Origin: Escherichia phage PhiNW-B1
Length of the DNA stretch: 40,478 nucleotides
Strand: one strand, 5' to 3'
Sequence record: PQ476010.1
The notes beneath the pieces are model-generated. The model had not been told where the DNA came from and made no database searches. It saw only the letters and a program-made list of their open reading frames with translations. Of the stretch, positions 1,197 through 36,894 are shown one piece after another (the stretch's first letter is position 1; each line of letters begins with the position of its first letter). Made by a program: the position numbers and the translations under genes.

Positions 1197-2931
1197 GGCA
1201 GTAACCAATCGGATGAAAGAAGACTTCGTGTTCTTCTTATTTGTCCTCTGGAAAGCACTTAGCCTACCAGTACCAACCAGATGCCAGATAGATATGGCCC
1301 GTAAGCTCTCCGCTGGGGACAACAGGCGCTTCATCCTACAGGCGTTCCGTGGTATAGGGAAGTCCTTCATTACGTGTGCCTTCGTGGTCTGGAAGCTATG
1401 GAATAACCCAGACTTGAAGTTCATGATTGTGTCGGCCTCAAAGGAACGAGCCGATGCTAACTCCATCTTCATCAAGCGAATCATCGACCTCATGCCTCAG
1501 CTTCGGGAACTCAAACCTAAGCAGGGGCAGCGAGATGCGGTTATCAGCTTCGACGTTGGACCAGCCAAGCCAGACCACTCACCTTCGGTTAAGTCCGTTG
1601 GTATCACTGGTCAGTTGACTGGTAGCCGTGCTGACATCCTGATTGCCGATGACGTGGAGGTTCCGAACAACTCAGCGACTCAGGCTGCCCGAGACCGTCT
1701 GTCAGAGCTTGTGAAAGAGTTCGACGCTATCCTGAAGCCGGGAGGTACAATCATCTATCTGGGTACTCCTCAGAACGAGATGACCTTGTATCGTGAGCTG
1801 GAAGGCCGTGGGTACACCACTACTATCTGGCCTGCTCGTTATCCACGCGACAGGAAGGACTGGCAGTCTTACGGCGACCGTCTGACTCCTATGCTTCAGG
1901 CAGAGCTTGAAGAGGACCCTGAGTCCTTCTACTGGCGTCCTACCGATGAAGTACGATTCGATGATACGGACCTGAAGGAACGTGAGCTGTCCTATGGTAA
2001 AGCTGGCTTCGCTCTACAGTTCATGCTTAACCCTAACCTAAGTGATGCCGAGAAGTACCCTCTGAAGCTCCGTGACCTTATCGTAGCAGACTTGGACCCA
2101 GCGTCTAGCCCAATGGTCTACCAATGGCTTCCTAACCCTCAGAACAAGCGTGAGGACGTTCCTAACGTTGGACTCATGGGTGACTCATACCACACGTATC
2201 AGACTGTAGGTTCTGCCTTCAGTTCGTACACCCAGAAGATTCTGGTCATTGACCCTAGTGGTCGTGGTAAGGATGAAACTGGCTATGCGGTACTGTATCA
2301 GCTCAACGGCTACATCTTCGCTATGGAAGTTGGTGGTATGCGTGGTGGTTATGAAGACTCTACGCTGGAAGCACTAGCTAAGATTGGTCGTAAGTGGAAG
2401 GTCAACGAATACGTCATTGAGGGTAACTTCGGCGATGGTATGTACCTTGAGCTATTCAAGCCTGTAGCGGCCCGTATCCATCCTGCTGCTGTAACTGAAG
2501 TGAAGAGTAAGGGTCAGAAAGAACTCCGCATCTGTGACGTTCTGGAGCCTATCATGGGGTCTCACCGACTTATCGTTAACGCTGCTGCTATCGTCCAAGA
2601 CTACCAGTCAGCCTCTGATAAGGATGGTGTGCGTAACCCTATCTACTCTCTCTTCTACCAGATGACCCGTATCTCTCGTGAACGTGGAGCCTTGGCACAC
2701 GATGACCGACTTGATGCGCTGGCTATCGGTGTACAGTTCTTCGTTGAGTCGATGGCTAAGGATGCCAACAAAGGCGAACGTGAAGTCACTGAGGAGTGGC
2801 TGGAGGAACAGATGGAGAACCCACGGAAAGGCTTCGAGTCCATCCACACTGAGTTCTGGGACAATGGGGTCCGGGTGACTCACGATACGGACGACGAGCT
2901 GGGACTAGGGTCATACGTTACGTTCCACTAG
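1168..2931 (+). CDS. 19: DNA maturase B / large terminase subunit (T7 gp19-like)
   Basis: 587 aa; strong similarity by recall to T7 gp19 ([49 protein letters not shown]); RBS AGGAGG 6 nt upstream. Confidence 0.95.
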
Positions 2932-2940
2932 CTTAATGAA

Positions 2941-2989
2941 TAACTATAGGTGAAAACTGCATGAATACGCAGTTAGTAACCTATAGTTA
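2941..2989 (+). repeat. 49-nt palindrome (11-bp perfect outer stem TAACTATAGGT/ACCTATAGTTA with nested 6-bp stem) immediately after gene 19
   Basis: arms 2941-2951 and 2979-2989 are exact reverse complements; inner AACTGC/GCAGTT 2954-2959 and 2970-2975. Confidence 0.6.
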
Positions 2990-3025
2990 CTACCAGTCTA
3001 ACCTACTGTTTTACAAGGAGTTTGG

Positions 3026-3048
3026 ACTTAACTATCACTATAGGGAAG
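3026..3048 (+). promoter_or_regulatory. phage RNAP promoter (phiOR-like), +1 G at 3043
   Basis: ACTTAACTATCACTATAGGGAAG matches the 23-bp consensus repeated 11 times in the window; located between gene 19 and 19.5 as phiOR is in T7. Confidence 0.75.
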
Positions 3049-3227
3049 ACCCCCGGTTACTTATAGTATTACTGTAGTGAATATACATATGCAGACTTTA
3101 TGCAAGACCTTAGGAGGCAGACTCCGAGTTCTTACCTAAGGCTTGCACCGATGGAAGGAGGTGATATTAATCATAATACCTCCAATACAGATAGTCACAG
3201 ACCATAGATACAGGAGGTATGTAGCAT

Positions 3228-3386
3228 ATGGCAAAGACCAAAGCTGTACTTAAAGCTCTGGCGACCAATCGAGCTACATACAGGTTTCTTGCTGCTGTTC
3301 TACTTGCTGCTGGCGTTACTGCTGGAAGTCAGTGGGTCGGGTGGGTCGAGACTCTCATATGTTCTCTGGTGTCTGAGTGTCATTAA
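3228..3386 (+). CDS. 19.5: small membrane protein (gp19.5-like)
   Basis: 52-codon ORF MAKTKAVLKALATNRATYRFLAAVLLAAGVTAGSQWVGWV...; RBS CAGGAGG 9 nt upstream; below the ORF-track size cutoff. Confidence 0.5.
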   Translation: MAKTKAVLKALATNRATYRFLAAVLLAAGVTAGSQWVGWVETLICSLVSECH

Positions 3387-3421
3387 CGCCGTAATGGTAA
3401 CAATCAACGAAAGGAGGTAGT

Positions 3422-3490
3422 ATGGACGAAGAGTCTTACGGTTCGTTCTCTGAAGAGGACTATAAGACGGAGTGGGAATACGCACATTGA
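3422..3490 (+). CDS. 22-codon acidic mini-ORF (MDEESYGSFSEEDYKTEWEYAH), existence uncertain
   Basis: strong RBS AAGGAGG 4 nt upstream of ATG; no homolog recalled. Confidence 0.2.
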   Translation: MDEESYGSFSEEDYKTEWEYAH

Positions 3491-3494
3491 AGAC

Positions 3495-3535
3495 CTAAGG
3501 TCAGTTCATAGCTGACGCTACTCTACTGACCTTAG
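3495..3535 (+). promoter_or_regulatory. hairpin (10-bp perfect stem CTAAGGTCAG/CTGACCTTAG) downstream of 19.5
   Basis: arms 3495-3504 and 3526-3535 are exact reverse complements, 21-nt loop. Confidence 0.4.
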
Positions 3536-3610
3536 CTACTGTAGTCAAGGACTTTAGGTAACACCTTAAGAGAAGCTCACTTAGTGTCATCCTACTTATT
3601 GGTCTATCCT

Positions 3611-3650
3611 AGTGTCGCCTGACCTACGGTCCTTGACCTACAGTGGCTGT
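3611..3650 (+). repeat. short-repeat array (3 copies of GRCCTACRGT) on the right side of the terminal repeat (SRR-like)
   Basis: GACCTACGGT 3611-3620, GACCTACAGT 3625-3634, GGCCTACAGT 3641-3650. Confidence 0.8.
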
Positions 3651-3698
3651 GGCCTACAGTAGTGACGATGAGTTTTGGACCAAAAGTTTGAGACCACA

Positions 3699-3915
3699 TC
3701 TCACAGTTCAAGAACCTCAAGTCTCCCCATAGGCCCTCTTTAAGTCCAGACCAAATGCCCTACCAGTTACTGCTCCTTGCAGTCACAGCCAGTCTATCAT
3801 AAGGTTGGACCGATGGTCAAGACGTTAGGTCGACGATAGGTCTAGGCTATGGCTTAGGGAAGGACGATAGGTGGTGACTATTGGTCTGTCTTTGAGTCTC
3901 TATCTGTATCAGACC
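3699..3915 (+). repeat. putative terminal-repeat segment at the concatemer junction (single copy here); boundaries approximate
   Basis: starts TCTCACAGT...TCTCCCCATAGG resembling the T7 left end TCTCACAGTG...TTCCCCCATAGG by recall; flanked by short-repeat arrays on both sides; contains TATCTGTAT near its end. Confidence 0.45.
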
Positions 3916-3920
3916 ATAAG

Positions 3921-4010
3921 TCACTAACCTACAGTCTCACTAACCTACAGTCTCACTAACCTACAGTCTCAATCATAAGACACCAACACCTACAGTCATA
4001 GACCTACAGT
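3921..4010 (+). repeat. short-repeat array on the left side (3 perfect tandem 16-mers TCACTAACCTACAGTC, then 2 more ACCTACAGT copies; SRL-like)
   Basis: units 3921-3936, 3937-3952, 3953-3968; ACCTACAGT again at 3988-3996 and 4002-4010. Confidence 0.9.
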
Positions 4011-4121
4011 TACTAGACACAAAGCTATAGACTTAAGGTCAAAGACATGTTAGTCAAAGACTATATCCTATTACACCATGGGGCCGACGATAGCTTAATC
4101 AATATTATTTCAAATTACCTA

Positions 4122-4150
4122 TTGACTATAGGTCTAGACTATGGCTTAAT
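4122..4150 (+). promoter_or_regulatory. candidate host sigma70 early promoter (TTGACT-17-CTTAAT)
   Basis: -35 TTGACT 4122-4127 (identical to T7 A1 -35), weak -10; inference. Confidence 0.3.
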
Positions 4151-4262
4151 AGCTTCCGTCAACACGACACGGCAACAACCGGATAGTGAAGACGCCTGGT
4201 CATCCCGGTTAAGTAGACAGCCTGATAAGTCATACGAACAACAGGCAGATGACAGAAAGTAG

Positions 4263-4291
4263 TTGACAAGAAGTAAGACTTAAAGTAGTAT
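4263..4291 (+). promoter_or_regulatory. candidate host sigma70 early promoter (TTGACA-17-TAGTAT)
   Basis: consensus -35 TTGACA 4263-4268, 17-bp spacer, -10 TAGTAT 4286-4291; upstream of first early gene. Confidence 0.45.
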
Positions 4292-4418
4292 GTACCACAT
4301 CAACACGAAACAACGGTGAAGCCTAACACTGAAACAGGCTAGCACGGCGACGACAGCCAGTGCGAATGCTCTTTAACAATCTGGATAACTCTTAATGTGC
4401 GCCGATAGCGACTAACTA

Positions 4419-4450
4419 CAGGGCCTTTTAGTCTACATCTGAAGGCCCTG
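4419..4450 (+). promoter_or_regulatory. hairpin (9-bp perfect stem CAGGGCCTT/AAGGCCCTG), candidate RNase III site before first early gene (R0.3-like)
   Basis: arms 4419-4427 and 4442-4450; followed by ACTGATAGTCACTAAC, which recurs at 4768-4783. Confidence 0.4.
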
Positions 4451-4473
4451 ACTGATAGTCACTAACTTAACGG

Positions 4474-4728
4474 ATGGACACTATGAAACACTTAAGCACA
4501 ATCACTAATCGCAATGAAGTATTCGTGAACACTAAAGGTTATGCGTGGATTCAGCTTAAAGAGATGAGAGGAGCGCGTCACCGTGTGGTAGTTCGCAAGG
4601 TATCAAGCAAGCCGTTCAGCAACTACAGCGTAGATACTATGCGTATAGACAACGAGACTTACCTGATAGACTCGCAGATAACCGTGCGTCCTACAGCGGG
4701 CATCTCAGCTCCTTATTTCGCTAACTGA
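4474..4728 (+). CDS. hypothetical early protein (84 aa)
   Basis: ORF in early region upstream of ocr; no homolog recalled. Confidence 0.55.
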   Translation: MDTMKHLSTITNRNEVFVNTKGYAWIQLKEMRGARHRVVVRKVSSKPFSNYSVDTMRIDNETYLIDSQITVRPTAGISAPYFAN

Positions 4729-4745
4729 GAGTGATTAACTACAGG

Positions 4746-4783
4746 TCGTTAGACTGATAGCGGCCTGACTGATAGTCACTAAC
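4746..4783 (+). promoter_or_regulatory. second copy of early hairpin element (stem CAGGTCG/CGGCCTG plus ACTGATAGTCACTAAC)
   Basis: 7-bp stem with one G-U; shares 5' GA(C/T)TAACTACAGG and 3' CCTGACTGATAGTCACTAAC with element at 4410-4467. Confidence 0.35.
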
Positions 4784-5899: not shown

Positions 5900-6159
5900 T
5901 GAAAACCGTATACATTAACAAACCATCTAGCCATAGCCGTGTAGAGCAAATAGAGCGTGACATGTTCTTACATCGCCGCATGAGGGCTGAGGGCCATAAG
6001 TACGAACTGATGAGTCTGGCGTTTGGTGGACGACCGATCACTGACGATGGTAAACTTTTAGTCTCAGGCTGGAAGGCGATAGACCAACGGTCAACCATCA
6101 AGCACACGACTCACGGTGACTTCAGCCATCTCCACGCTAACCCACTGATATGCAAGTGA
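5899..6159 (+). CDS. hypothetical early protein (86 aa)
   Basis: ATG overlaps previous stop (TAATG); no homolog recalled. Confidence 0.55.
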   Translation: MKTVYINKPSSHSRVEQIERDMFLHRRMRAEGHKYELMSLAFGGRPITDDGKLLVSGWKAIDQRSTIKHTTHGDFSHLHANPLICK

Positions 6160-6164
6160 TTATG

Positions 6165-6187
6165 ACTTAACTATCACTATAGGACTC
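6165..6187 (+). promoter_or_regulatory. phage RNAP promoter immediately upstream of the RNAP gene, +1 G at 6182
   Basis: ACTTAACTATCACTATAGGACTC matches the window consensus. Confidence 0.65.
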
Positions 6188-6256
6188 AAGGTCTAAGACT
6201 CCAAGTGAAAGACCAAAGAGACTTTAAGTGAAAGACTAATAACAAGGACTTTAAGT

Positions 6257-8938
6257 ATGAGCGTCATCTCTATTGACAAACACGACTTCTCTGATGTGTC
6301 GAACGCCATTGAGCCGTTTAACCTGCTGGCTGACCACTACGGGCAAGACCTTGCAGTCAAACAGCTTCAGCTTGAGCATGAGGCCTACACTGAAGGTGAG
6401 CGACGTTTCATCAAGAACCTTGAGCGTCAGACTGAGCGCGGGGAACTGGCAGACAATCAGGTCGCCAAGCCTTTGATGCAGACTCTGGTTCCTAAGATTG
6501 CGCAAGCCGTCAAGGAGTGGCACGAAGGTCCAGACGGGAAGCTGTCAACCTCTCGTCCTAGCGTAGCGTTCACCATGTTGAGCACTGAAGAGAAGGCCGT
6601 CAAGGACCGCTCTCTTCGCATCTCCTGCGAGTCTGCTGCGGTTATCATACTGAAGGTCATCCTCTCCAAGCTGGTCAAGCCTGAAGGGATACCGATTACA
6701 CCGATGGCCTCCGCGATAGGTCGCACACTTGAGGACGAAATCCGCTTCGGTCGCATCCGTGACAAGGAGAAGGAGCACTTCAAGAAGGCGATAGCTGAGA
6801 ACTTGAACAAGCGAGCTGGGGCATCCTACAAGAAAGCCTACATGCAAGCGGTCGAGGCCTCCATGTTGGAGCAAGGACAACTGGAAGATGCGTGGGGAAC
6901 TTGGAGTCCGACCGAGGCTGTCCACGTTGGCATCAAGATGCTTGAGATTGTCATCCAGTCAACACAACTGGTCGAGCTTAAGCGGTACGGTGCTGGCAAT
7001 GCAGCGGCTGACGTAGAGATGGTCCACCTGTCAGACTTCTGGGTCAAGAAGATGGCACAACGCGGATTTAGCCTTGCGGGTATCGCCCCAGTCTACCAAC
7101 CTTGCGTCGTTCCACCTAAGCCGTGGACCGGTGTCGTAGGCGGTGGGTACTGGGCCAAAGGTCGCAGACCATTACCACTGATTCGCTTAGGGTCTAAGTC
7201 TGCGGTGGCACGTTACGAAGACGTGTATATGCCTGAAGTCTATGACGCTGTTAACATCATCCAGAATACACCTTGGAAAGTGAACAAGAAGGTTCTGGAC
7301 GTGGTGAACATGGTCGAGAAGTTGAACAACACGCCTATTGATGACATCCCTCAGATGGAGCCACTGAAGCCTGAAGAATATGCGGGTGAGACTGAAGAGG
7401 AACTCAAGGCGTGGAAGAAAGCGGCTGCTGGTATCTATCGCCGCGAGAAGGCCAGACAGTCACGCAGATTGTCACTGAGCTTTATCGTGAACCAAGCTAA
7501 CAAGTTCTCTCAGTTCAAGGCCATCTGGTTCCCGTACAACATGGACTGGCGCGGTAGAGTCTACGCTGTGCCGATGTTCAACCCTCAGGGTAACGACATG
7601 CAGAAGGGTCTCCTGACTCTGGCAGTCGGTAAGCCTATTGGTGCTGATGGTTTCAGATGGCTGAAGGTCCACGGTGCAAACTGTGCGGGTATTGATAAAG
7701 TAACCTTCGAGGAGCGCATCAAGTGGGTGGAAGATAACCACGACAACATCATGGCTACCGCTAAGGCACCGATGGACAGCATTGAGTGGTGGGGTAAGTT
7801 AGACTCTCCGTTCTGCTTCCTAGCGTTCTGCTTCGAGTATGCTGGCGTAATGCATCACGGATTGTCTTACTCCTGCTCGCTGCCGATAGCATTCGATGGG
7901 TCCTGCTCTGGGATTCAGCACTTTAGCGCGATGCTTCGTGATCACATCGGTGGACATGCAGTAAACCTGACGCCTTCCGGTAAGGTCCAAGACATCTACC
8001 GCATCGTGTCTGACCGCATTGAGGAAGAGCTTAAAGTCCTGCTGGTTAACGGCACGGACAACGAGATGGTAACTCACGAGGACAAGAAAACTGGTGAGAT
8101 TACCGAGCGTCTCAAGCTGGGGACACGAGAGCTGGCCCGTCAGTGGCTGACCTACGGTATGTCACGAAAGGTCACTAAGCGTTCGGTCATGACTCTGGCC
8201 TACGGGTCGAAAGAGTACGGCTTCGCAGACCAAGTTTACGAGGACATCGTGATGCCAGCGATTGACTCAGGGTCTGGCGCTATGTTCACTGAACCAAGCC
8301 AAGCATCTCGCTTCATGGCTAAGATGATTTGGGAAGCTGTGAGTGTGACCGTAGTTGCTGCGGTTGACGCGATGAAATGGCTTCAGGGTGCTGCCAAGCT
8401 GCTGGCGGCTGAAGTGAAGGACAAGAAGACGGGTGAAATCCTGAAGCCTTGCCTTCCGGTACACTGGGTCACACCTGATGGGTTCCCGGTCTGGCAGGAA
8501 TACCGCAAGAAGGATACCACTCGTCTGAATCTGATGTTCTTAGGGTCATTCAACCTTCAGCCTACCGTCAACAAAGGCACGAAGAAAGAGCTGGATAAAC
8601 ACAAGCAGGAGTCAGGCATTAGCCCGAACTTCGTCCACTCACAAGATGGTAGCCACCTGCGCAAGACTGTAGTCCACACGCATCGCAAGTATGGCGTGAT
8701 GTCATTCGCAGTGATTCATGATAGCTTCGGGACCATCCCGGCTGACGCTGAATATCTGTTCCGTGGTGTCCGTGAGACGATGGTCGAGACCTACCGCGAC
8801 AACGATGTGCTGCTTGACTTCTACGAGCAGTTTGAATACCAGCTTCACGAGAGCCAGCGCAATAAGTTGCCAGAGCTTCCGAAGAAAGGTAAACTGAATA
8901 TCGAAGACATCTTGTCTTCAGACTTTGCATTCGCTTAA
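6257..8938 (+). CDS. 1: single-subunit DNA-dependent RNA polymerase (T7 gp1 homolog)
   Basis: 893 aa; extensive identity by recall to T7 RNAP (AIWFPYNMDWRGRVYA, NPQGNDM.KGLLTLA, DGSCSGIQHFSAMLRD, HDSFGTIPADA, C-terminal FAFA). Confidence 0.98.
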   Translation: MSVISIDKHDFSDVSNAIEPFNLLADHYGQDLAVKQLQLEHEAYTEGERRFIKNLERQTERGELADNQVAKPLMQTLVPKIAQAVKEWHEGPDGKLSTSRPSVAFTMLSTEEKAVKDRSLRISCESAAVIILKVILSKLVKPEGIPITPMASAIGRTLEDEIRFGRIRDKEKEHFKKAIAENLNKRAGASYKKAYMQAVEASMLEQGQLEDAWGTWSPTEAVHVGIKMLEIVIQSTQLVELKRYGAGNAAADVEMVHLSDFWVKKMAQRGFSLAGIAPVYQPCVVPPKPWTGVVGGGYWAKGRRPLPLIRLGSKSAVARYEDVYMPEVYDAVNIIQNTPWKVNKKVLDVVNMVEKLNNTPIDDIPQMEPLKPEEYAGETEEELKAWKKAAAGIYRREKARQSRRLSLSFIVNQANKFSQFKAIWFPYNMDWRGRVYAVPMFNPQGNDMQKGLLTLAVGKPIGADGFRWLKVHGANCAGIDKVTFEERIKWVEDNHDNIMATAKAPMDSIEWWGKLDSPFCFLAFCFEYAGVMHHGLSYSCSLPIAFDGSCSGIQHFSAMLRDHIGGHAVNLTPSGKVQDIYRIVSDRIEEELKVLLVNGTDNEMVTHEDKKTGEITERLKLGTRELARQWLTYGMSRKVTKRSVMTLAYGSKEYGFADQVYEDIVMPAIDSGSGAMFTEPSQASRFMAKMIWEAVSVTVVAAVDAMKWLQGAAKLLAAEVKDKKTGEILKPCLPVHWVTPDGFPVWQEYRKKDTTRLNLMFLGSFNLQPTVNKGTKKELDKHKQESGISPNFVHSQDGSHLRKTVVHTHRKYGVMSFAVIHDSFGTIPADAEYLFRGVRETMVETYRDNDVLLDFYEQFEYQLHESQRNKLPELPKKGKLNIEDILSSDFAFA

Positions 8939-13321: not shown

Positions 13322-13776
13322 TGACTACCTGTAAAGACCTTGAAGTTGGAACACGTTACAGATTCTCAAAGAACACCCTGTTGAATAACCCCAGCTTCAC
13401 TGATGCTGTTTTCGAAAAGCGAGAAGACCATAGCGTAATTGTGGAGAAGGGGTGGCATCCTGAGGATTATATCGGTGAGACTACCAGCTGGAATGGTCAC
13501 GAGACCTACAGTGTAGAAGTTGTTGACCAGCCTCAAGTCCTGCCAGCTTCGAGCGTACCTCCTGTGACTGTGAAGCGTGAAGTCCTGACAATCGACAAGA
13601 TTGGTGTAGGCCAGACGTTCATCGTCCATGGAAAGCCTGAAGAAGTTTACGTGAAGATTAGCAACTCACACGTCTTCAACCATAAGCGTCTCCAGATGCA
13701 CACCACGGACGCACAACGCTTCACCCAGCACCTGAATCTAGTGGTCGTAGAATTGGTGGTGTACAATGGTAAGTAA
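13321..13776 (+). CDS. hypothetical protein (about 151 aa) between endonuclease I and amidase
   Basis: ATG 13321 with AAAGGAG 7 nt upstream; no homolog recalled. Confidence 0.6.
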   Translation: MTTCKDLEVGTRYRFSKNTLLNNPSFTDAVFEKREDHSVIVEKGWHPEDYIGETTSWNGHETYSVEVVDQPQVLPASSVPPVTVKREVLTIDKIGVGQTFIVHGKPEEVYVKISNSHVFNHKRLQMHTTDAQRFTQHLNLVVVELVVYNGK

Positions 13777-14224
13777 GGTACAGTTCAACCCACGGTCCCG
13801 GACTGACGCTATCTTCGTTCACTGTTCGGCTACCAAGCCAGAGATGGACATCGGGGTAGAGACCATCCGTATGTGGCACAAGCAGCAAGGCTGGCTGGAC
13901 GTAGGCTACCACTTTATCATCAAGCGCGATGGTACTGTGGAAGAGGGTCGCCCGGTAAACGTCGTAGGGTCACACGTTAAGGACTGGAACTCACGGTCTG
14001 TAGGCGTCTGCCTTGTAGGTGGAATTGACGCTAAGGGCAAGTTTGAAGCTAACTTCACTCCGGACCAGATGAACTCCCTACGCAACAAGCTGGCTGACCT
14101 GAAGTCCCTGTATCCTCAGGCAGAAATCAAAGCACATCATGATGTAGCACCAAAGGCGTGTCCAAGTTTCGACTTACAGCGCTGGCTGTCTACTAATGAG
14201 CTGGTCACTTCCGACCACGGTTAA
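13766..14224 (+). CDS. 3.5: N-acetylmuramoyl-L-alanine amidase / T7 lysozyme homolog (gp3.5)
   Basis: VQF..R.RTDAIFVHCSATKP...WLDVGYHFIIKRDGTVE.GR....GSH.K..N..S.GVCLVGGID.KGKF.ANFTP.QM.SLR...HH.VAPKACPSFDL.RW...ELVTSD.G. Confidence 0.95.
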   Translation: MVSKVQFNPRSRTDAIFVHCSATKPEMDIGVETIRMWHKQQGWLDVGYHFIIKRDGTVEEGRPVNVVGSHVKDWNSRSVGVCLVGGIDAKGKFEANFTPDQMNSLRNKLADLKSLYPQAEIKAHHDVAPKACPSFDLQRWLSTNELVTSDHG

Positions 14225-30281: not shown

Positions 30282-32564
30282 ATGGCTAGTAATATTGAAT
30301 CAGCTCTGGCTAATCGGACTATGGGTCGTGGCAGAGCGCCGGGTAAAACTATCGCCGTCAACTATCAAGCAGCCAGCGTTCAGGCTCCGACTGGTGACTC
30401 CGGTCTGGCCCGTGCGTTAACCAACTTCGTTGAGTCTGGAACTGGATTGTACAAGCAGTTCAAAGATGATGAGAAGACGCGGGCTGACGAGAGGTCTAAC
30501 GAGATTATCCGTAAGCTGACCCCTCAGCAGAGACGAGAGGCTATCCAGAACGGGACACTGCTGTATCAGGACGACCCGTATGCTATGGAAGCACTTCGAG
30601 TCAAGACAGGTCGTAACGCTGCCTTTGCGGTGGATGACGAGATTAACGTTAAGATTCAGAACGGTGAGTTCCGTACACGTCAGGACATGGAAGAGTATCG
30701 CCACCAGCGACTTCAGGACGCCGCTAAGTCCTATGCTGAAGAGGCGGGTATTAACCCTACAGATGAGTTCTTCCAGCGCGGGTTCAACGATAACATCACA
30801 GACCGAAACATCGCTATCTATGGGTCTTTCAATAAGTATTTCAGTAAGCAGTCTGAAGAGACAGCAATGTTGAATACTCGTATTGAGATGAACTCATTCC
30901 TGAACGATGGCGACCTGATGCGTTCACCTGAGTCTGGCAAGACCTTCATGGCCTACCTTCGTGATGGACTAACTACTGCTGCTATCCCTTCGGACCAGCG
31001 AGCACGGGAGGTAATTACCCAGACGGTCCGTGACGCAATCCAGAAGTCAGGCGGCTCCAACTTCCTACAGCAAGTACGAGGCGAGCGAATCACCCTTAAC
31101 GGTGTGGATGCTACAGTCGAAGAGATTGTAGGACCTGATGTCTTCAACGCTGCTATTGTTGAGGCGCAAGGAACTGAGTACAAGCTGGTGGCTAAGTATC
31201 AGGAGGACTTAGCGTTAGGCGTTCAGTCTGCGATTCTTCAGGACGACCCAACCATCGGTCTGGACCAGATTCAGAAACTCAAGGAGCAGAACAACCTGCT
31301 TCAACCGGGTGAAGAACTCACGCCTCAGCGTCAGATGCTTATTAATGCCGAAGCCAGCTTGCTTGAAGCGGTAAAGCGTAAGTCTGCTGAACAGGCGAAG
31401 GAGAACACTAAGTTAATCCAGACTCAGAACAAGCAACTGGTAATTGACCAAGTGTATCAGCGACGTCTGGCTGGGGACAACGTGTCCACCAACTATGAGG
31501 ACCTTCCAGTCTCAGATGCTACAGGCGAGTTCAAGCGTTCTGACATGAACAACTATGCGTCTGCCAAGCTACAGCAGATTGACCAGATGGACATACCTGA
31601 GGCTGCTAAAGACGCTCAGAAGGTGGCATTGTTAAGAGCTGACACTAACAACGGTCCGTTCCGTAATGCCTTCCAGACTCTAACTCAGGACGCTGCTGGC
31701 GAGTGGCAAGCTGCGGTCATCCGGGGACAGTACGACCCAGACAAGATGCAACGCTTCGAGTCTCTTCGTCGTGCCTACACTCAGGACCCTTCAAGTTTTG
31801 CAGCTCTGTATCCTGACCAAGCTCAGTTGTTCTCTACGTTCGACCAGATGGACAAGATGGGTCTGGACCCTCAGACGATGATTGAAGCTGATAAGCAAGC
31901 TGCAAGTCAAAGCCGTGAGATGCGAATGGAGTCAGACAAGGCGTGGCAGGAGTTGAAGAACGACTCCAAGAACACCCAGTTGTCTCGCCTCCCAACGTCT
32001 CTGGACTCAAGTGCTCGTAAGGTCTGGGACTCATGGTACTATCGTACAGGGAACGCTGACGCTGCAACTCAGCAGACTCAACGCTGGCTTAACGAGAACA
32101 CCGTAACGTTCCAATCTGAAGGTTCGGACGGTAAGTCCATCGGCATGGTGTCCAAACACCAGCTTATGGTCGGGGATAACCCAGAGTCGTGGCAGGTGGG
32201 TCGAGACATTATCGACACAGCTCGTCAGCAGCTCATTAAGGCCAACCCTTGGGTAGTGAACTCTCAGCTCTCCGTAGTTGAGCAGAACGGCTCGGTCTTC
32301 CTTCAGGACGCTACCGGGACTATTCGTATTCGATACGATAAAGAGCTGGTAGGCAAACTGTACCGTGAACAGCAGAAGCAAGCCGAGGATAAAGCCTACG
32401 CTGAGGCCGAACGTAAAGCCAACACCCGCGCTCGCATTGTCGAGACTAAAGCGGCTGGTGATAAGCGTCGTAACGAGCGTGAAGCTAATATCCAGAAACG
32501 GGGCGGTATGTACAGCGATGTCTCTCTGGAGGGTATCGCAAACACCTTAATCGGTAAGGAGTAA
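30282..32564 (+). CDS. 15: internal virion protein B (T7 gp15 homolog)
   Basis: 760 aa (T7 747); position. Confidence 0.9.
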   Translation: MASNIESALANRTMGRGRAPGKTIAVNYQAASVQAPTGDSGLARALTNFVESGTGLYKQFKDDEKTRADERSNEIIRKLTPQQRREAIQNGTLLYQDDPYAMEALRVKTGRNAAFAVDDEINVKIQNGEFRTRQDMEEYRHQRLQDAAKSYAEEAGINPTDEFFQRGFNDNITDRNIAIYGSFNKYFSKQSEETAMLNTRIEMNSFLNDGDLMRSPESGKTFMAYLRDGLTTAAIPSDQRAREVITQTVRDAIQKSGGSNFLQQVRGERITLNGVDATVEEIVGPDVFNAAIVEAQGTEYKLVAKYQEDLALGVQSAILQDDPTIGLDQIQKLKEQNNLLQPGEELTPQRQMLINAEASLLEAVKRKSAEQAKENTKLIQTQNKQLVIDQVYQRRLAGDNVSTNYEDLPVSDATGEFKRSDMNNYASAKLQQIDQMDIPEAAKDAQKVALLRADTNNGPFRNAFQTLTQDAAGEWQAAVIRGQYDPDKMQRFESLRRAYTQDPSSFAALYPDQAQLFSTFDQMDKMGLDPQTMIEADKQAASQSREMRMESDKAWQELKNDSKNTQLSRLPTSLDSSARKVWDSWYYRTGNADAATQQTQRWLNENTVTFQSEGSDGKSIGMVSKHQLMVGDNPESWQVGRDIIDTARQQLIKANPWVVNSQLSVVEQNGSVFLQDATGTIRIRYDKELVGKLYREQQKQAEDKAYAEAERKANTRARIVETKAAGDKRRNEREANIQKRGGMYSDVSLEGIANTLIGKE

Positions 32565-32566
32565 AC

Positions 32567-33016
32567 ATGAAGAACGGGACAGCCAGTGAGAGACTGGCAG
32601 AACTGTCAGTAGCTGAAGAGTCTGGCTGTATCCGCTTCACCGGAAGCATTGAGAAGTCCGGGTACGGAAGGATAATGGTCAACAGGGTCAAATACGGAGC
32701 GCATAGACTTGCTTACGAGCTTGCTAACGGTCCTATACCCGATGGGTACGTTGTTCGCCATAAGTGCGACAACCCGTCCTGTATAAACCCAAGCCACCTT
32801 GAAGTCGGCACCCAAGCTGATAACATAAAGGATAAGGTGACTAGAGGTCGCCAAGCGTCAGGATGCTCCATAGGAGTATCTAAGCTCACTGAGGAAAGTG
32901 TGCGTGACATAAGGTCCAGCGACCTAAAGGTTTCACTCTTGGCTGAACGCTATGGAGTGAGTACGGTTTCTATTAGAAATATCTTGAGGAGAAAGACATG
33001 GCAACACGTGGAGTAA
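32567..33016 (+). CDS. HNH homing endonuclease inserted between genes 15 and 16
   Basis: motif VVRHKCDNPSCINPSHLEVGTQADN (HNH with Cys/His ligands); TAAGGAG RBS; packed with 2-nt gap to gene 15 and 19-nt overlap into gene 16. Confidence 0.85.
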   Translation: MKNGTASERLAELSVAEESGCIRFTGSIEKSGYGRIMVNRVKYGAHRLAYELANGPIPDGYVVRHKCDNPSCINPSHLEVGTQADNIKDKVTRGRQASGCSIGVSKLTEESVRDIRSSDLKVSLLAERYGVSTVSIRNILRRKTWQHVE

Positions 33017-36000
33017 GGAACGCAAATCCGGGCAATATCCGTAAGTCAAAAGACCAATGGGAAGGTGCTGTTGGCGATGACGGTGCATTCGTTATCTTCG
33101 ATAGTCCTGAATCTGGAGTAAGAGCATTAGCGAAAAACCTTCAAAGCTACGGTCGACAGGGCTATGACTCAATCGAGAAGATTATCAACCGCTGGGCACC
33201 ACCTAACGAGAACGACACTCAGTCCTACATCGACTCGGTTGTGGCTGCGACTGGTATTCCTGCAACCCAAAGTATCGACCTGAGCAACCCTGATGTACTC
33301 GCCTCTCTGTCTGAGGCTATCGGCTACCATGAGACTGGTTCCCGGTATGACCCTGAGGTCTACAAGACTGGCGTATCTCGTGCCTTAAGTGGTGCTGGAG
33401 GCATCACCCCAAAGACCTCACCAGTAAGCGCTAACGTCTTCGACGCTCTCACGGAGGGCTTGAAGTCGAAACCTAAAGTCGCTCTGGGAGAGAACCTTCC
33501 GGGCGTTACTGGTATGAACATCGAAGGTCAAGCACCTGAGGCTCCCAACGAGTCCTTCGGAGAGATGTTCTATAAGTCAACTGGCGAGACGCTGGACCAA
33601 CGGGCTGACCGCTCTACGTGGTTCGGCTTCGGTGGAGCTGCTGAGGCTGAAGTGAAGAACTCTATGGTCGGCGTGGCTATCCGCGCTGGTCAGACTGAGG
33701 ACTCACTGGATGTCATTGGCGATGTGTTCAACCCAACCCGATGGAACAACCATAAGTGGACTCGTGAGGAGCTGGACCAGATTCGTAACGCTGGGGTTCT
33801 GCCTCAGTATTACGGAGTCATTACTGGCGGCTCTCCTCAGAACCTGACTGAGCTTATTAACTTGGCGCTTGAGAACCAGAAGTTGGACCAAGAGAAGGCC
33901 AAGGCGGGGACTGGCGCTCAACTGGCGGCTGGTGTGATTGGTGCTGGCGTGGACCCTCTGACCTACGTTCCTATTGCTGGGCAGGTAGGTAAGGGCGGGA
34001 AGCTAATCAACAAGATGTTCACTGTGGCTGCTCAGTCTGGTGCTCTGGCTGGGGCATCCGAGATTGCTCGAACCTCAGTTGCTGGTGGGGACGCTCATGT
34101 GGCTGAGGCAATTATGGGCGGTGCTCTCTTCGGTGGGGGAATGACAGCTATCGGGGACGCTATCGGCAAGGCCTTAGGCAAGTCAACCAACGAGTTCGCC
34201 GGGCCAGCCACACGTCTGGAAGCCCGTGAGACTGCACGTAATGTTGATGGTCAGGACCTGTCGCGTATGCCAATCCGTGAAGGAGAGGAGACCTTTAGGC
34301 ATCAAGGAGTTAAGTTCGCTGACGTTCCGAATGAGCCGGGTAGTGTACGGCTTGAAGACGGCTCAATCCTGATTGGTGAGAACCCTCTGAACCCTAAGAC
34401 ACGTCAGGTCTTTGACGAAGTGATTGAGCCTGAACGGGCCGCTGCTGGTGTGAACCTTGGTGGTCTGACTGAGATTGGCCTGAAGCTGCTTCGGTCTGAG
34501 AACCCTGAGATTCGTGGAGTAGCTGCTGACTTAGTGCGTTCACCGACTGGTATGCAGTCTGGGGCATCAGGTAAAATCGGGACCACTGCGTCTGACGTAT
34601 TCGAGAGACTTCGTGCTGTGGACCATCGGTTCTACAACGACATCGACGATGCGGTTACTGAGGCACTAAAGGACCCGTACTTCCAGACAGCATTCTGGCG
34701 AGACTCTGGAGCATTCCGTCAGGACATCTACCAGCGCGTGTCTATGGCTATCGAAGATGGTAGCGGAAATCTGAAGGCTGAACTGACTCCTGGAGAACTG
34801 AAAGTCTATGACCTACTGAAGAACCAGTTTGACGCCAAGCGTGAGATGATGGAGAACCCGGCGATGTTTGGTCGTCCAGACGCTCAGTCTATCTTTCCGG
34901 GCAGCCGCTTCAAGGGAACATACGTCCCGCATGTGTATAGCAACCAGATGAAGGAGCTGTACATCAAGGAGCTTGGGAGTCCAGAGGCACTACAGGAGGC
35001 CATCAAGAAGTCATGGTTGACCAGCTATGCGTCTCGACCTGAGGTCAAGAAACGTGTGGACGAGGCACTCTTAGAGGCTGACCCTACGTTGACTCCAGAA
35101 GGACTTGCGGCTGCGGTCGATAAGTACGCCAACGATAAGGCTTATGGTATCTCTCACACCGAGCAGTTCGAGCGTTCATCCGTAATGGAAGAGAACATCA
35201 ATGGTCTGGTGGGTCTGGAGAACAACAGCTTCCTTGAGGCTCGTAACCTGTTCGATAGCGATATGTCAATCGTCCTACCTAACGGTCAGACCTTCAGTGT
35301 CAACAACCTGCGTGAGTGGGACATGGACAAGATTGTCCCGGCCTACAACCGTCGAGTTAATGGCGATATTGCTATCATGGCTGGTACAGGCAAGACCACG
35401 AAGGACATGAAGGACTTGGTTGAGACCATGATGAACAAGGCTGGGGATGACGGTAAGTTGAAAGGTGAAGTATCTACCTTACGTGACACTTTGAAGATTC
35501 TAACCGGTCGTGCTAGACGTGATGGTGCTGATGATGCGGCCTTCGCTACCGTGATGCGCACAATGACAGACCTATCGTTCTTCGCTAAGAATGCCTACAT
35601 GGGTGTTCAGAACTTAACGGAGATTGGTGGTATGCTGGCCCGTGGTAACGTTCGTGCAATGCTGCATGGAGTCCCAATTTTCCGTGACCTAGCCTTCCGT
35701 AACAAGAAAGTTGGGGCCTCAGAGATTAAGGACCTGCACAATGTTATCTTTGGTAAGGAGCTGGATGACTCAATCCGTCCGTCTAAACAGGATGTCATTG
35801 ACCGCCTGCGATCTTACAGTGACCTCGGTCGTGGTACAGCTACAGCTCTGGGGACTGCCAAGTATTACACTGGCGAACTTGCAGTACGCTCTCCGTTCAC
35901 TAAAGTCCTCAACGGTACGACCAACTACCTGTTAGATGCTGGACGTCAAGGCTTCCTGTCTGACATCGTGGAGCATAGCCTGACTGGTAGTAAGCGTAAG

Positions 36001-36894
36001 TTCGATGACCGCTGGCTTAAGACCGCTGGTATCTCTGACGAGCAGTGGAAGGGCATTAAGTCCCTCATCCGTGAGTCAGTGACTCGTGGTCCAGACGGGA
36101 AGTACACCATTAAGGATAAGAAGGCGTTCAGTCAGGACCCAAGGGCTATGGACCTGTGGCGTATGGGTGATACCATCGCTGACGAAACGTTACTACGTCC
36201 TCATAAGCTGTCCAACATGGACGCAAAGGCTTATGGTCCTCTCGCTAAGACTGTCCTTCAGTTTAAGAACTTCGTCATCAAGTCCATCAATGGACGTACC
36301 ATGCGAACCTTCTATAACGCCACGAAGAACAACCGAGCGATGGACGCTGCCCTGTCCACTGTGATCTCTATGGGTCTTGCTGGTATCTACTACATGGCTC
36401 AGGCTCATGTCAAGGCTTACGCTATGCAGGATGGTCGAGACCGTGACTACCTCAAGCAAGCTCTAGACCCGACGATGATTGGATATGCAGCTCTATCGCG
36501 TAGTTCACACCTTGGTGGACCACTTGGGGTAGCTAACATTCTGGGTGGCATCGCTGGGTATGAGGACACTAAGATGCTCCGTTCGTCTATCCTACCTCGT
36601 TCGCCCACAGAGAAGCCTGAACGTGCAATCGCGTATGGTGCAGCTACAAGTGACCCTGTGATGAATGTTGTTGGTAACTTCTTGGAGCAGGTTCCAGCTT
36701 TCGGATATGCTGCTAACGTTGGTGCTTCGGCTTATAACTTGGCTGGCTACCTGAAGGCCGACACTCGGGTAAACGAGCGAGACTACATGACCGGGATGTA
36801 TAACACCTTCCGTGAACTGGTTCCGAACGACCCGATTACTCAGAAGTTGCTACTGGGAACGTTTGAGGAGCAAGGTATCCACATCAAGGACTAA
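32998..36894 (+). CDS. 16: internal virion protein D (T7 gp16 homolog) with divergent N-terminal domain
   Basis: 1298 aa (T7 1318); from about residue 200 onward co-linear with T7 gp16 by recall (TWFGF..AAEAE, RWN.H.WT.EEL, PVDPL.YVP, LVRSPTGMQSGASGK, NDKAYGISH, NGDIAIM); first ~130 aa differ. Confidence 0.95.
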   Translation: MATRGVRNANPGNIRKSKDQWEGAVGDDGAFVIFDSPESGVRALAKNLQSYGRQGYDSIEKIINRWAPPNENDTQSYIDSVVAATGIPATQSIDLSNPDVLASLSEAIGYHETGSRYDPEVYKTGVSRALSGAGGITPKTSPVSANVFDALTEGLKSKPKVALGENLPGVTGMNIEGQAPEAPNESFGEMFYKSTGETLDQRADRSTWFGFGGAAEAEVKNSMVGVAIRAGQTEDSLDVIGDVFNPTRWNNHKWTREELDQIRNAGVLPQYYGVITGGSPQNLTELINLALENQKLDQEKAKAGTGAQLAAGVIGAGVDPLTYVPIAGQVGKGGKLINKMFTVAAQSGALAGASEIARTSVAGGDAHVAEAIMGGALFGGGMTAIGDAIGKALGKSTNEFAGPATRLEARETARNVDGQDLSRMPIREGEETFRHQGVKFADVPNEPGSVRLEDGSILIGENPLNPKTRQVFDEVIEPERAAAGVNLGGLTEIGLKLLRSENPEIRGVAADLVRSPTGMQSGASGKIGTTASDVFERLRAVDHRFYNDIDDAVTEALKDPYFQTAFWRDSGAFRQDIYQRVSMAIEDGSGNLKAELTPGELKVYDLLKNQFDAKREMMENPAMFGRPDAQSIFPGSRFKGTYVPHVYSNQMKELYIKELGSPEALQEAIKKSWLTSYASRPEVKKRVDEALLEADPTLTPEGLAAAVDKYANDKAYGISHTEQFERSSVMEENINGLVGLENNSFLEARNLFDSDMSIVLPNGQTFSVNNLREWDMDKIVPAYNRRVNGDIAIMAGTGKTTKDMKDLVETMMNKAGDDGKLKGEVSTLRDTLKILTGRARRDGADDAAFATVMRTMTDLSFFAKNAYMGVQNLTEIGGMLARGNVRAMLHGVPIFRDLAFRNKKVGASEIKDLHNVIFGKELDDSIRPSKQDVIDRLRSYSDLGRGTATALGTAKYYTGELAVRSPFTKVLNGTTNYLLDAGRQGFLSDIVEHSLTGSKRKFDDRWLKTAGISDEQWKGIKSLIRESVTRGPDGKYTIKDKKAFSQDPRAMDLWRMGDTIADETLLRPHKLSNMDAKAYGPLAKTVLQFKNFVIKSINGRTMRTFYNATKNNRAMDAALSTVISMGLAGIYYMAQAHVKAYAMQDGRDRDYLKQALDPTMIGYAALSRSSHLGGPLGVANILGGIAGYEDTKMLRSSILPRSPTEKPERAIAYGAATSDPVMNVVGNFLEQVPAFGYAANVGASAYNLAGYLKADTRVNERDYMTGMYNTFRELVPNDPITQKLLLGTFEEQGIHIKD

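Follow-up and report, generated by a model that had tools for sequence, protein, structure and literature searches.

An Enc34-type lysozyme-like domain in the place of the T7 transglycosylase domain in gp16 of Escherichia phage PhiNW-B1

The internal virion protein gp16 of phage T7 opens with a transglycosylase domain (residues 1-156) that forms the 'wings' of the periplasmic tunnel, followed by a 'molecular tape' segment (residues 157-228) that binds gp15 (PMC8954989). Does the gp16 homologue of Escherichia phage PhiNW-B1 carry the same N-terminal domain and, if not, what stands in its place? The window analysed here is the whole 40,478-nucleotide stretch of this phage (PQ476010.1). A sequence-only reading of it had proposed that the first ~130 residues of gp16 are not the soluble lytic transglycosylase (SLT) segment of T7, and that they may be a different cell-wall hydrolase or binding module swapped in next to an HNH insertion. 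By megablast of positions 20000-40478, the window belongs to a K1F-like T7 relative of the genus Kayfunavirus (Autographiviridae, Studiervirinae), with 95% identity to K1F across 97% of that region. We find that residues 1-131 of its gp16 belong to the family of the Hafnia phage Enc34 endolysin, and that they very probably form a catalytically intact peptidoglycan glycosidase domain at the position of the T7 SLT/GH23 domain. The features that bear on this are the following.

32998..36894, plus strand: gene 16, internal virion or ejection protein D (gp16 homologue), 1298 residues (open reading frame listing, BLASTP with T7 gp16, phrog_342, PDB 9vvp_L)
32998..33390, plus strand: N-terminal Enc34-type (PHA02564) lysozyme-like, putatively muralytic domain, residues 1-131 (homology to 7Q47; phrog_873)
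33193..33195, plus strand: TGG codon of Trp66 in an RWAPP motif, equivalent to Enc34 Trp79 (alignments; nearly invariant, Tyr in MmP1)
33226..33228, plus strand: TAC codon of Tyr77, equivalent to Enc34 Tyr95 (alignments; invariant)
33331..33333, plus strand: GAG codon of Glu112 in an HETG / HENG motif, equivalent to Enc34 Glu131 and proposed to be catalytic (HMMER alignment to 7q47; role of Glu131 from PMC8943055)
33397..33612, plus strand: GGITPK and the segment homologous to T7 gp16 residues ~157-228, where T7 homology resumes (alignments)

The gp16 reading frame starts with an ATG preceded, 8 nt upstream, by a GAGGAG Shine-Dalgarno sequence, and its translation matches the N-terminus quoted in the sequence-only reading, MATRGVRNANPGNIRKSKDQWEG, exactly. 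Over most of its length the protein is a T7-type gp16: its gene follows genes 14 and 15 and precedes the tail fibre or spike gene, and the protein is homologous to T7 gp16 over the gp15-binding, membrane and C-terminal regions and falls in phrog_342 with 1089 bits. BLASTP against T7 gp16 (NC_001604) yields a single alignment of 1190 columns at 54% identity, which begins at window residue 120 and T7 residue 144; residues 1-119 find no counterpart in T7 gp16 by this comparison. A phmmer search of all PDB sequences gives the same picture, as the T7 gp16 structures 7eyb, 7k5c, 9jyy and 6yt5 align only from window residue 119 (T7 residue 143). The same search returned a full-length match of 2776 bits to a near-identical Kayfunavirus-type gp16, PDB 9vvp_L ('Gp29', 1295 residues, four chains), and in the CR44b record the gp16 homologue carries a note of detection by mass spectrometry.

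A highly divergent SLT/GH23 lytic transglycosylase, orthologous to T7 residues 1-156 and retaining the catalytic Glu, would sit in the same place of the same protein and presumably do the same job. The Enc34 paper, moreover, argues that the fold is very remotely related by descent to GH73 and GH23 enzymes, in which a Glu occupies the equivalent place in space (PMC8943055). At the level tested here this explanation is already refuted, and we consider it hardly credible. The Pfam SLT model (PF01464) does not match the N-termini of the window, K1F or MmP1 gp16 at E<=1, while the N-terminus of T7 gp16, run as a positive control, matches it at 2.6e-31. An hhalign comparison of a 41-sequence profile of the window module with T7 residues 1-160 gave a probability of 0.15%. 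The early E-S catalytic Glu of SLT domains (T7 Glu37) has no alignable counterpart in the N-terminus of window gp16, and the GH23 goose-lysozyme-like fold was not found in this domain. With the structure comparison described below, these results exclude a divergent SLT domain, the outcome that the sequence-only reading had named as refuting it, and bear out the proposal that the first ~130 residues are not of the T7 type. Neither residues 1-150 nor full-length gp16 had a relevant match in Pfam or NCBIfam scans, the one hit being a sub-threshold one to HCNGP that we judged to be due to chance.

What the segment is instead emerged from searches with the module itself. Against the PDB, phmmer aligned window residues 3-118 with 7q47_A, the catalytic domain of the Hafnia phage Enc34 endolysin, at E=8.8e-12, and residues 2-130 matched phrog_873, annotated 'endolysin', at 2.1e-50 in PHROGs, where the same module also turns up within families that bear the labels head protein, tape measure protein and tail injection transglycosylase. 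Chi-like endolysins were recovered by tblastn at 33-40% identity with the module. The Enc34 domain (CDD PHA02564, 7Q47) is reported to lyse outer-membrane-permeabilised cells of E. coli, P. aeruginosa and Hafnia; according to the authors' proposal Glu131 acts as the catalytic acid, and Trp79 and Tyr95 are conserved as well (PMC8943055). The interpretation of the sequence-only reading is supported in part: of its two options, a different muralytic family is the better supported, whereas joint arrival with the HNH gene fares otherwise, as set out below.

All three Enc34 residues that are conserved in the groove have counterparts in the window module, namely Trp66, Tyr77 and Glu112. In an alignment of ten phage proteins (window, K1F, Ro103C3lw, CR44b, Pisces, MmP1, Bp-AMP1, JBD30, SPN1S and Enc34), Glu112 and Tyr77 are invariant and Trp66 is nearly so, being replaced by Tyr in MmP1. 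The same holds for 41 diverse homologues of metagenomic and genomic origin, in which Glu112 and Tyr77 are again invariant and Trp66 almost so. Glu112, late in the domain, is the only invariant candidate acid within the groove. A second invariant acid, Glu71, lies in the motif PPNENDT (E71-N72-D73-T74, nt 33208-33219), which reads ENNT in Enc34 and is conserved throughout the family. Glu71 may serve as another catalytic carboxylate and, if so, would matter for the choice between hydrolase and lytic-transglycosylase chemistry.

Structure prediction, one of the checks that the sequence-only reading had suggested, gave a confident result. The AlphaFold2 model of the module, computed from the homologue alignment, has a mean predicted local distance difference test (pLDDT) score of 92.3 and a predicted template modelling (pTM) score of 0.86, and its predicted helices span residues 37-53, 59-66, 74-85, 98-113 and 119-130, in keeping with the all-helical fold of 7Q47. 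When the model was compared with the PDB by Foldseek, chains of 7q47 were the only matches below E=0.001 (probability 1.00; TM score 0.83), and the model deviates from the active Enc34 enzyme by a root-mean-square deviation (r.m.s.d.) of 1.6 Å. The closest structural neighbour outside the family is a GH73 glucosaminidase.

Since the Enc34-type fold includes the last helix (119-130), the module and the T7-like body must meet at about residue 131-134, the module ending near residue 131 (nt 33390). This junction is found directly before GGITPK (residues 134-139), a motif that is also present in T7 gp16. Taken with the domain limits of the T7 protein, this position shows that the exchange was a precise replacement, confined to the catalytic domain.

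By analogy with T7, the module most likely replaces the T7 transglycosylase and cuts peptidoglycan during DNA ejection. The virion would carry the protein in its internal core and, once adsorbed, release it through the tail; gp16 would then refold in the periplasm, where its free N-terminal domain could cut glycan strands locally, with Glu112 as general acid and Trp66 and Tyr77 positioning the substrate. Such a local opening would let the gp15-gp16 tunnel cross the murein layer to the inner membrane. The conserved segment after GGITPK would bind gp15 and, again as in T7, the inner-membrane and cytoplasmic part would be made up of the C-terminal ~1100 residues. The activity is probably most important when the peptidoglycan is highly cross-linked; T7 mutants altered at gp16 Glu37 are reportedly delayed at 20 °C and on stationary-phase cells. 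Besides the account of the T7 tunnel in PMC8954989, the scheme follows work by Moak and Molineux from 2000 and 2004, which is said to have described core packaging of T7 gp16, its ejection after gp14, its periplasmic refolding and the local opening of murein. Elsewhere in the window, a separate candidate for the endolysin of this phage is found, so that the gp16 module would not be needed as a lysis enzyme:

13769-14221, no strand given: T7 gp3.5-type amidase/lysozyme homologue (68% identity, across 151 residues, to a manually entered T7 gp3.5 sequence)

Several points weigh against an active entry lysin. The T7 gp16 transglycosylase is reportedly dispensable in most conditions, as Moak and Molineux are said to have found in 2000, and this would permit a relaxed or structural role for its counterpart. 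The enzymatic and virion evidence stems from relatives and not from this exact gp16, and it is from those relatives that we infer virion delivery, the activity of the module and the bond it would cleave. For the Enc34 family, the bond specificity (muramidase, glucosaminidase or lytic transglycosylase) was not determined and no substrate complex was obtained; the role of Glu131 rests on structural superposition, with no mutagenesis in the text covered (PMC8943055). These points would be compatible with a non-catalytic module, either binding peptidoglycan or serving purely as a structural 'wing' of the periplasmic tunnel, its activity having been lost; conditional dispensability of the T7 domain would allow such decay. 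Against this reading, Glu112 and Tyr77 are invariant and position 66 is aromatic across Kayfunavirus, MmP1, Bp-AMP1, SPN1S, JBD30, Enc34 and the 41 further homologues, and the predicted fold is intact, as its close superposition onto the active enzyme indicates. We therefore regard loss of activity as unlikely, and retain a catalytically intact glycosidase domain as the preferred explanation.

How the module came to lie beside an HNH gene is a separate question, for which the neighbourhood has to be considered. The gene order in the window is 12, 13, 14, 15, HNH, 16, 17, and the final gene encodes a tailspike of 1064 residues whose K1F counterpart is annotated as an endo-N-acetylneuraminidase. 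The relevant features are:

30282..32564, plus strand: gene 15, coding for internal virion protein C, with which gp16 builds the periplasmic tunnel (open reading frame listing; K1F, CR44b and Pisces annotate gp15 at the equivalent position)
32567..33016, plus strand: putative HNH homing-endonuclease gene between genes 15 and 16 (PF13392 HNH_3 at 1.9e-17; phrog_59)
32300..33700, strand not applicable: recombinant patch of ~1.4 kb and of different ancestry that runs from the 3' end of gene 15 through the HNH gene into gene 16, of which it takes in the first ~700 nt (100-nt identity profiles)

The HNH gene has the motif of a homing endonuclease and, as would be expected of one, a sporadic presence at a fixed site in close relatives: at the gene 15/16 junction it is present in CR44b, LNA5 and Ro103C3lw and absent from K1F and Pisces. 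The window gene is 84-99% identical to the HNH genes of CR44b and LNA5, and the allele that occupies the same slot in Ro103C3lw (2668-3117 of its locus) shares 58% amino acid identity with it. Two diverged HNH alleles at this level of identity thus share one slot among Kayfunaviruses, a slot that is empty in K1F and Pisces. The start of gp16 overlaps the 3' end of the HNH gene by 19 nt (32998-33016), and the Shine-Dalgarno sequence of gp16 is itself HNH coding sequence; because of this arrangement, gp16 expression may be translationally coupled to the inserted gene. In K1F, gene 16 starts 5 nt after gene 15, has no HNH gene before it and nevertheless encodes an Enc34-type module.

Identity profiles in 100-nt bins against five relatives delimit the patch. 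Outside it, genes 15 and 16 are 95-100% identical to those of K1F and LNA5; within it, identity falls to 66-89% for K1F and 79-96% for LNA5. Pisces and Ro103C3lw, which elsewhere reach only ~80-88%, match its outer flanks (32300-32560 and 33300-33700) at 98-100% identity, and the amino acid sequence of the window module is 98% identical to that of Ro103C3lw and 91% to that of Pisces. The window module is therefore a Ro103C3lw/Pisces-type allele within a K1F-type gp16.

One might conclude from this that gene 16 acquired its non-T7 module along with the HNH gene next to it, as the DNA of the module lies within an HNH-centred patch of differing ancestry, and such a patch is compatible with co-conversion of flanking markers. 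We consider joint entry very improbable. The same module type is present in K1F and Pisces, both of which lack the HNH gene, MmP1 and Bp-AMP1 have it at the N-terminus of gp16 without an annotated HNH gene, some 220 records share it at >=80% identity, and the outer flanks of the patch are nearly identical to HNH-less Pisces. These HNH-less relatives and Pisces-like flanks indicate that an allele of the same domain moved, and not necessarily with the HNH gene. Acquisition of the module jointly with HNH is therefore ruled out, and the idea that it was swapped in next to the insertion does not hold as an exchange of domain type. Since K1F and Pisces carry the module without HNH, the module type is ancestral to the genus Kayfunavirus, all of which shares it, and independent of the insertion. 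Repeated recombination at the gene 15/16 junction would fit the mosaic, and homing-associated co-conversion possibly lies behind the patch.

Tentatively, and with more doubt than belief, we would go further and propose that the chemistry of the Enc34-type module differs from that of the T7 lytic transglycosylase and that the HNH endonuclease drives exchange of entry-lysin alleles, by co-conversion, between Kayfunaviruses that infect the same cell. For the first part we cite the GH73 glucosaminidase as closest structural neighbour outside the family. If the chemistry does differ, the widespread GenBank name 'peptidoglycan lytic exotransglycosylase' would be a misnomer for Kayfunavirus gp16, and the ejectosomes of T7-like phages would have at least two different chemistries for getting through murein. 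If HNH-driven co-conversion is true, the 1.4-kb mosaic patch would be accounted for.

The distribution of the module extends well beyond this genus. Its extent among phages was read from tblastn, as a word-indexed protein search missed all the close gp16 proteins and yielded, for the most part, short homologues that stand alone. By tblastn the module was found in 779 phage records, and the ~220 at >=80% identity are Kayfunavirus-type gp16 proteins of Escherichia, Salmonella, Citrobacter and Enterobacter phages. The T7-type SLT N-terminus occurs in 1141 records, including T7-, T3/Yersinia- and K11-type relatives and relatives that infect Pseudomonas. MmP1 (genus Minipunavirus) has an Enc34-type module of ~41% identity at its gp16 N-terminus, and Burkholderia phage Bp-AMP1 carries the module at the N-terminus of a gp16-like protein. 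In the epsilon15-like Salmonella phage SPN1S it is internal (residues ~350-480) to a 'head protein' of 937 residues (1954-4767 of the retrieved locus) encoded after two internal virion proteins, which is probably an ejection protein that contains a lysin. The family is very large: when its profile was searched against 1.84 billion representative proteins, 18,518 clusters (50% identity) were returned at E<=0.001, 13,089 of them at E<=1e-10. In these clusters the module either stands alone or is fused, terminally at one end or the other or internally, in proteins of up to 1421 residues. The copies of Pfam-A and NCBIfam that we searched hold no model matching the Enc34-type module.

Compared with known systems, the window gp16 resembles T7 gp16 (7EYB, 7K5C, 6YT5) in its orthologous body, in gene order and in the succession of an N-terminal module, muralytic in T7 and presumably so here, GGITPK and a gp15-binding segment. 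It differs in that T7 has a PF01464 SLT domain with Glu37 and the window gp16 an Enc34-type module with Glu112; the chemistry of the T7 module is known to be that of a lytic transglycosylase, whereas the window module may be a lytic transglycosylase or a hydrolase. Compared with the Enc34 endolysin ORF39 (7Q47; Cernooka et al. 2022, PMC8943055), the window domain lacks two loop insertions and is fused N-terminally to an ejection protein of 1298 residues, presumably acting at entry. The architecture is the same throughout as in other Kayfunavirus gp16 proteins (K1F YP_338126, CR44b, 9VVP 'Gp29'). K1F gp16 shares 84% identity with the window protein in the first 200 residues and 97-100% beyond residue ~220, but the window, unlike K1F, has the Ro103C3lw/Pisces-type module allele and the upstream HNH gene. 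This is an ordinary Kayfunavirus gp16, with a near-identical protein in the PDB and a domain family characterised in 2022.

Other viruses offer parallels for a role at entry. P5 of the corticovirus PM2 and its Vinavirales homologues were modelled on 7Q47 (PMC9502842), and the homologue GP11 of vibriophage NO16 is listed among virion proteins with a proposed entry role (PMC13552765). PM2 P5, NO16 GP11, Bp-AMP1 and SPN1S thus resemble the window phage in having an Enc34-type module in or on the virion, for which action on the cell wall at entry has been proposed (PMC9502842, PMC13552765), but the carrier proteins and virus architectures are other ones, and in SPN1S the module is internal and not N-terminal. 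In the literature searched, which did not include the K1F genome paper (Scholl and Merril 2005), we found no paper that links Kayfunavirus gp16 to Enc34 or gives K1F-type gp16 an Enc34-type domain in place of an SLT one, and none for PDB 9VVP.

Many GenBank records name Kayfunavirus gp16 a lytic (exo)transglycosylase by transfer from T7. For specialists the outcome will be unsurprising, and its main value lies in correcting this annotation, as hundreds of Kayfunavirus gp16 records carry the T7-derived label although their N-terminal domain is of the Enc34-type family, and in providing a clean example of ejection proteins that trade cell-wall-degrading modules while the rest of the machine is kept. 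Trp66, Tyr77 and Glu112 are also marked as mutation targets with which the entry-lysin role could be probed in K1F-derived therapeutic or engineered phages.

Some homologues were placed by their surroundings. One of 138 residues (P0085), from Pantoea prophages, has its gene downstream of that for antiterminator Q, flanked by a holin gene (PF05106) on one side and a DUF2570 / LysC i-/o-spanin pair on the other, a position that in lambdoid lysis cassettes belongs to the endolysin. The gene lies at 6001-6417 in the prophage loci, and NCBI names its product 'structural protein', a name that its location makes probably misleading. The homologue gp24 of JBD30 lies upstream of an Rz-like spanin gene, with one small open reading frame between them. 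Another homologue (P0121, 762 residues) has four matched stretches, possibly tandem copies. Finally, GenBank MT350292.1, 'Enterococcus phage EFA-1', is a Kayfunavirus that is 87.7% identical to the region including HNH and gp16, and its host label, Enterococcus faecalis, appears doubtful.

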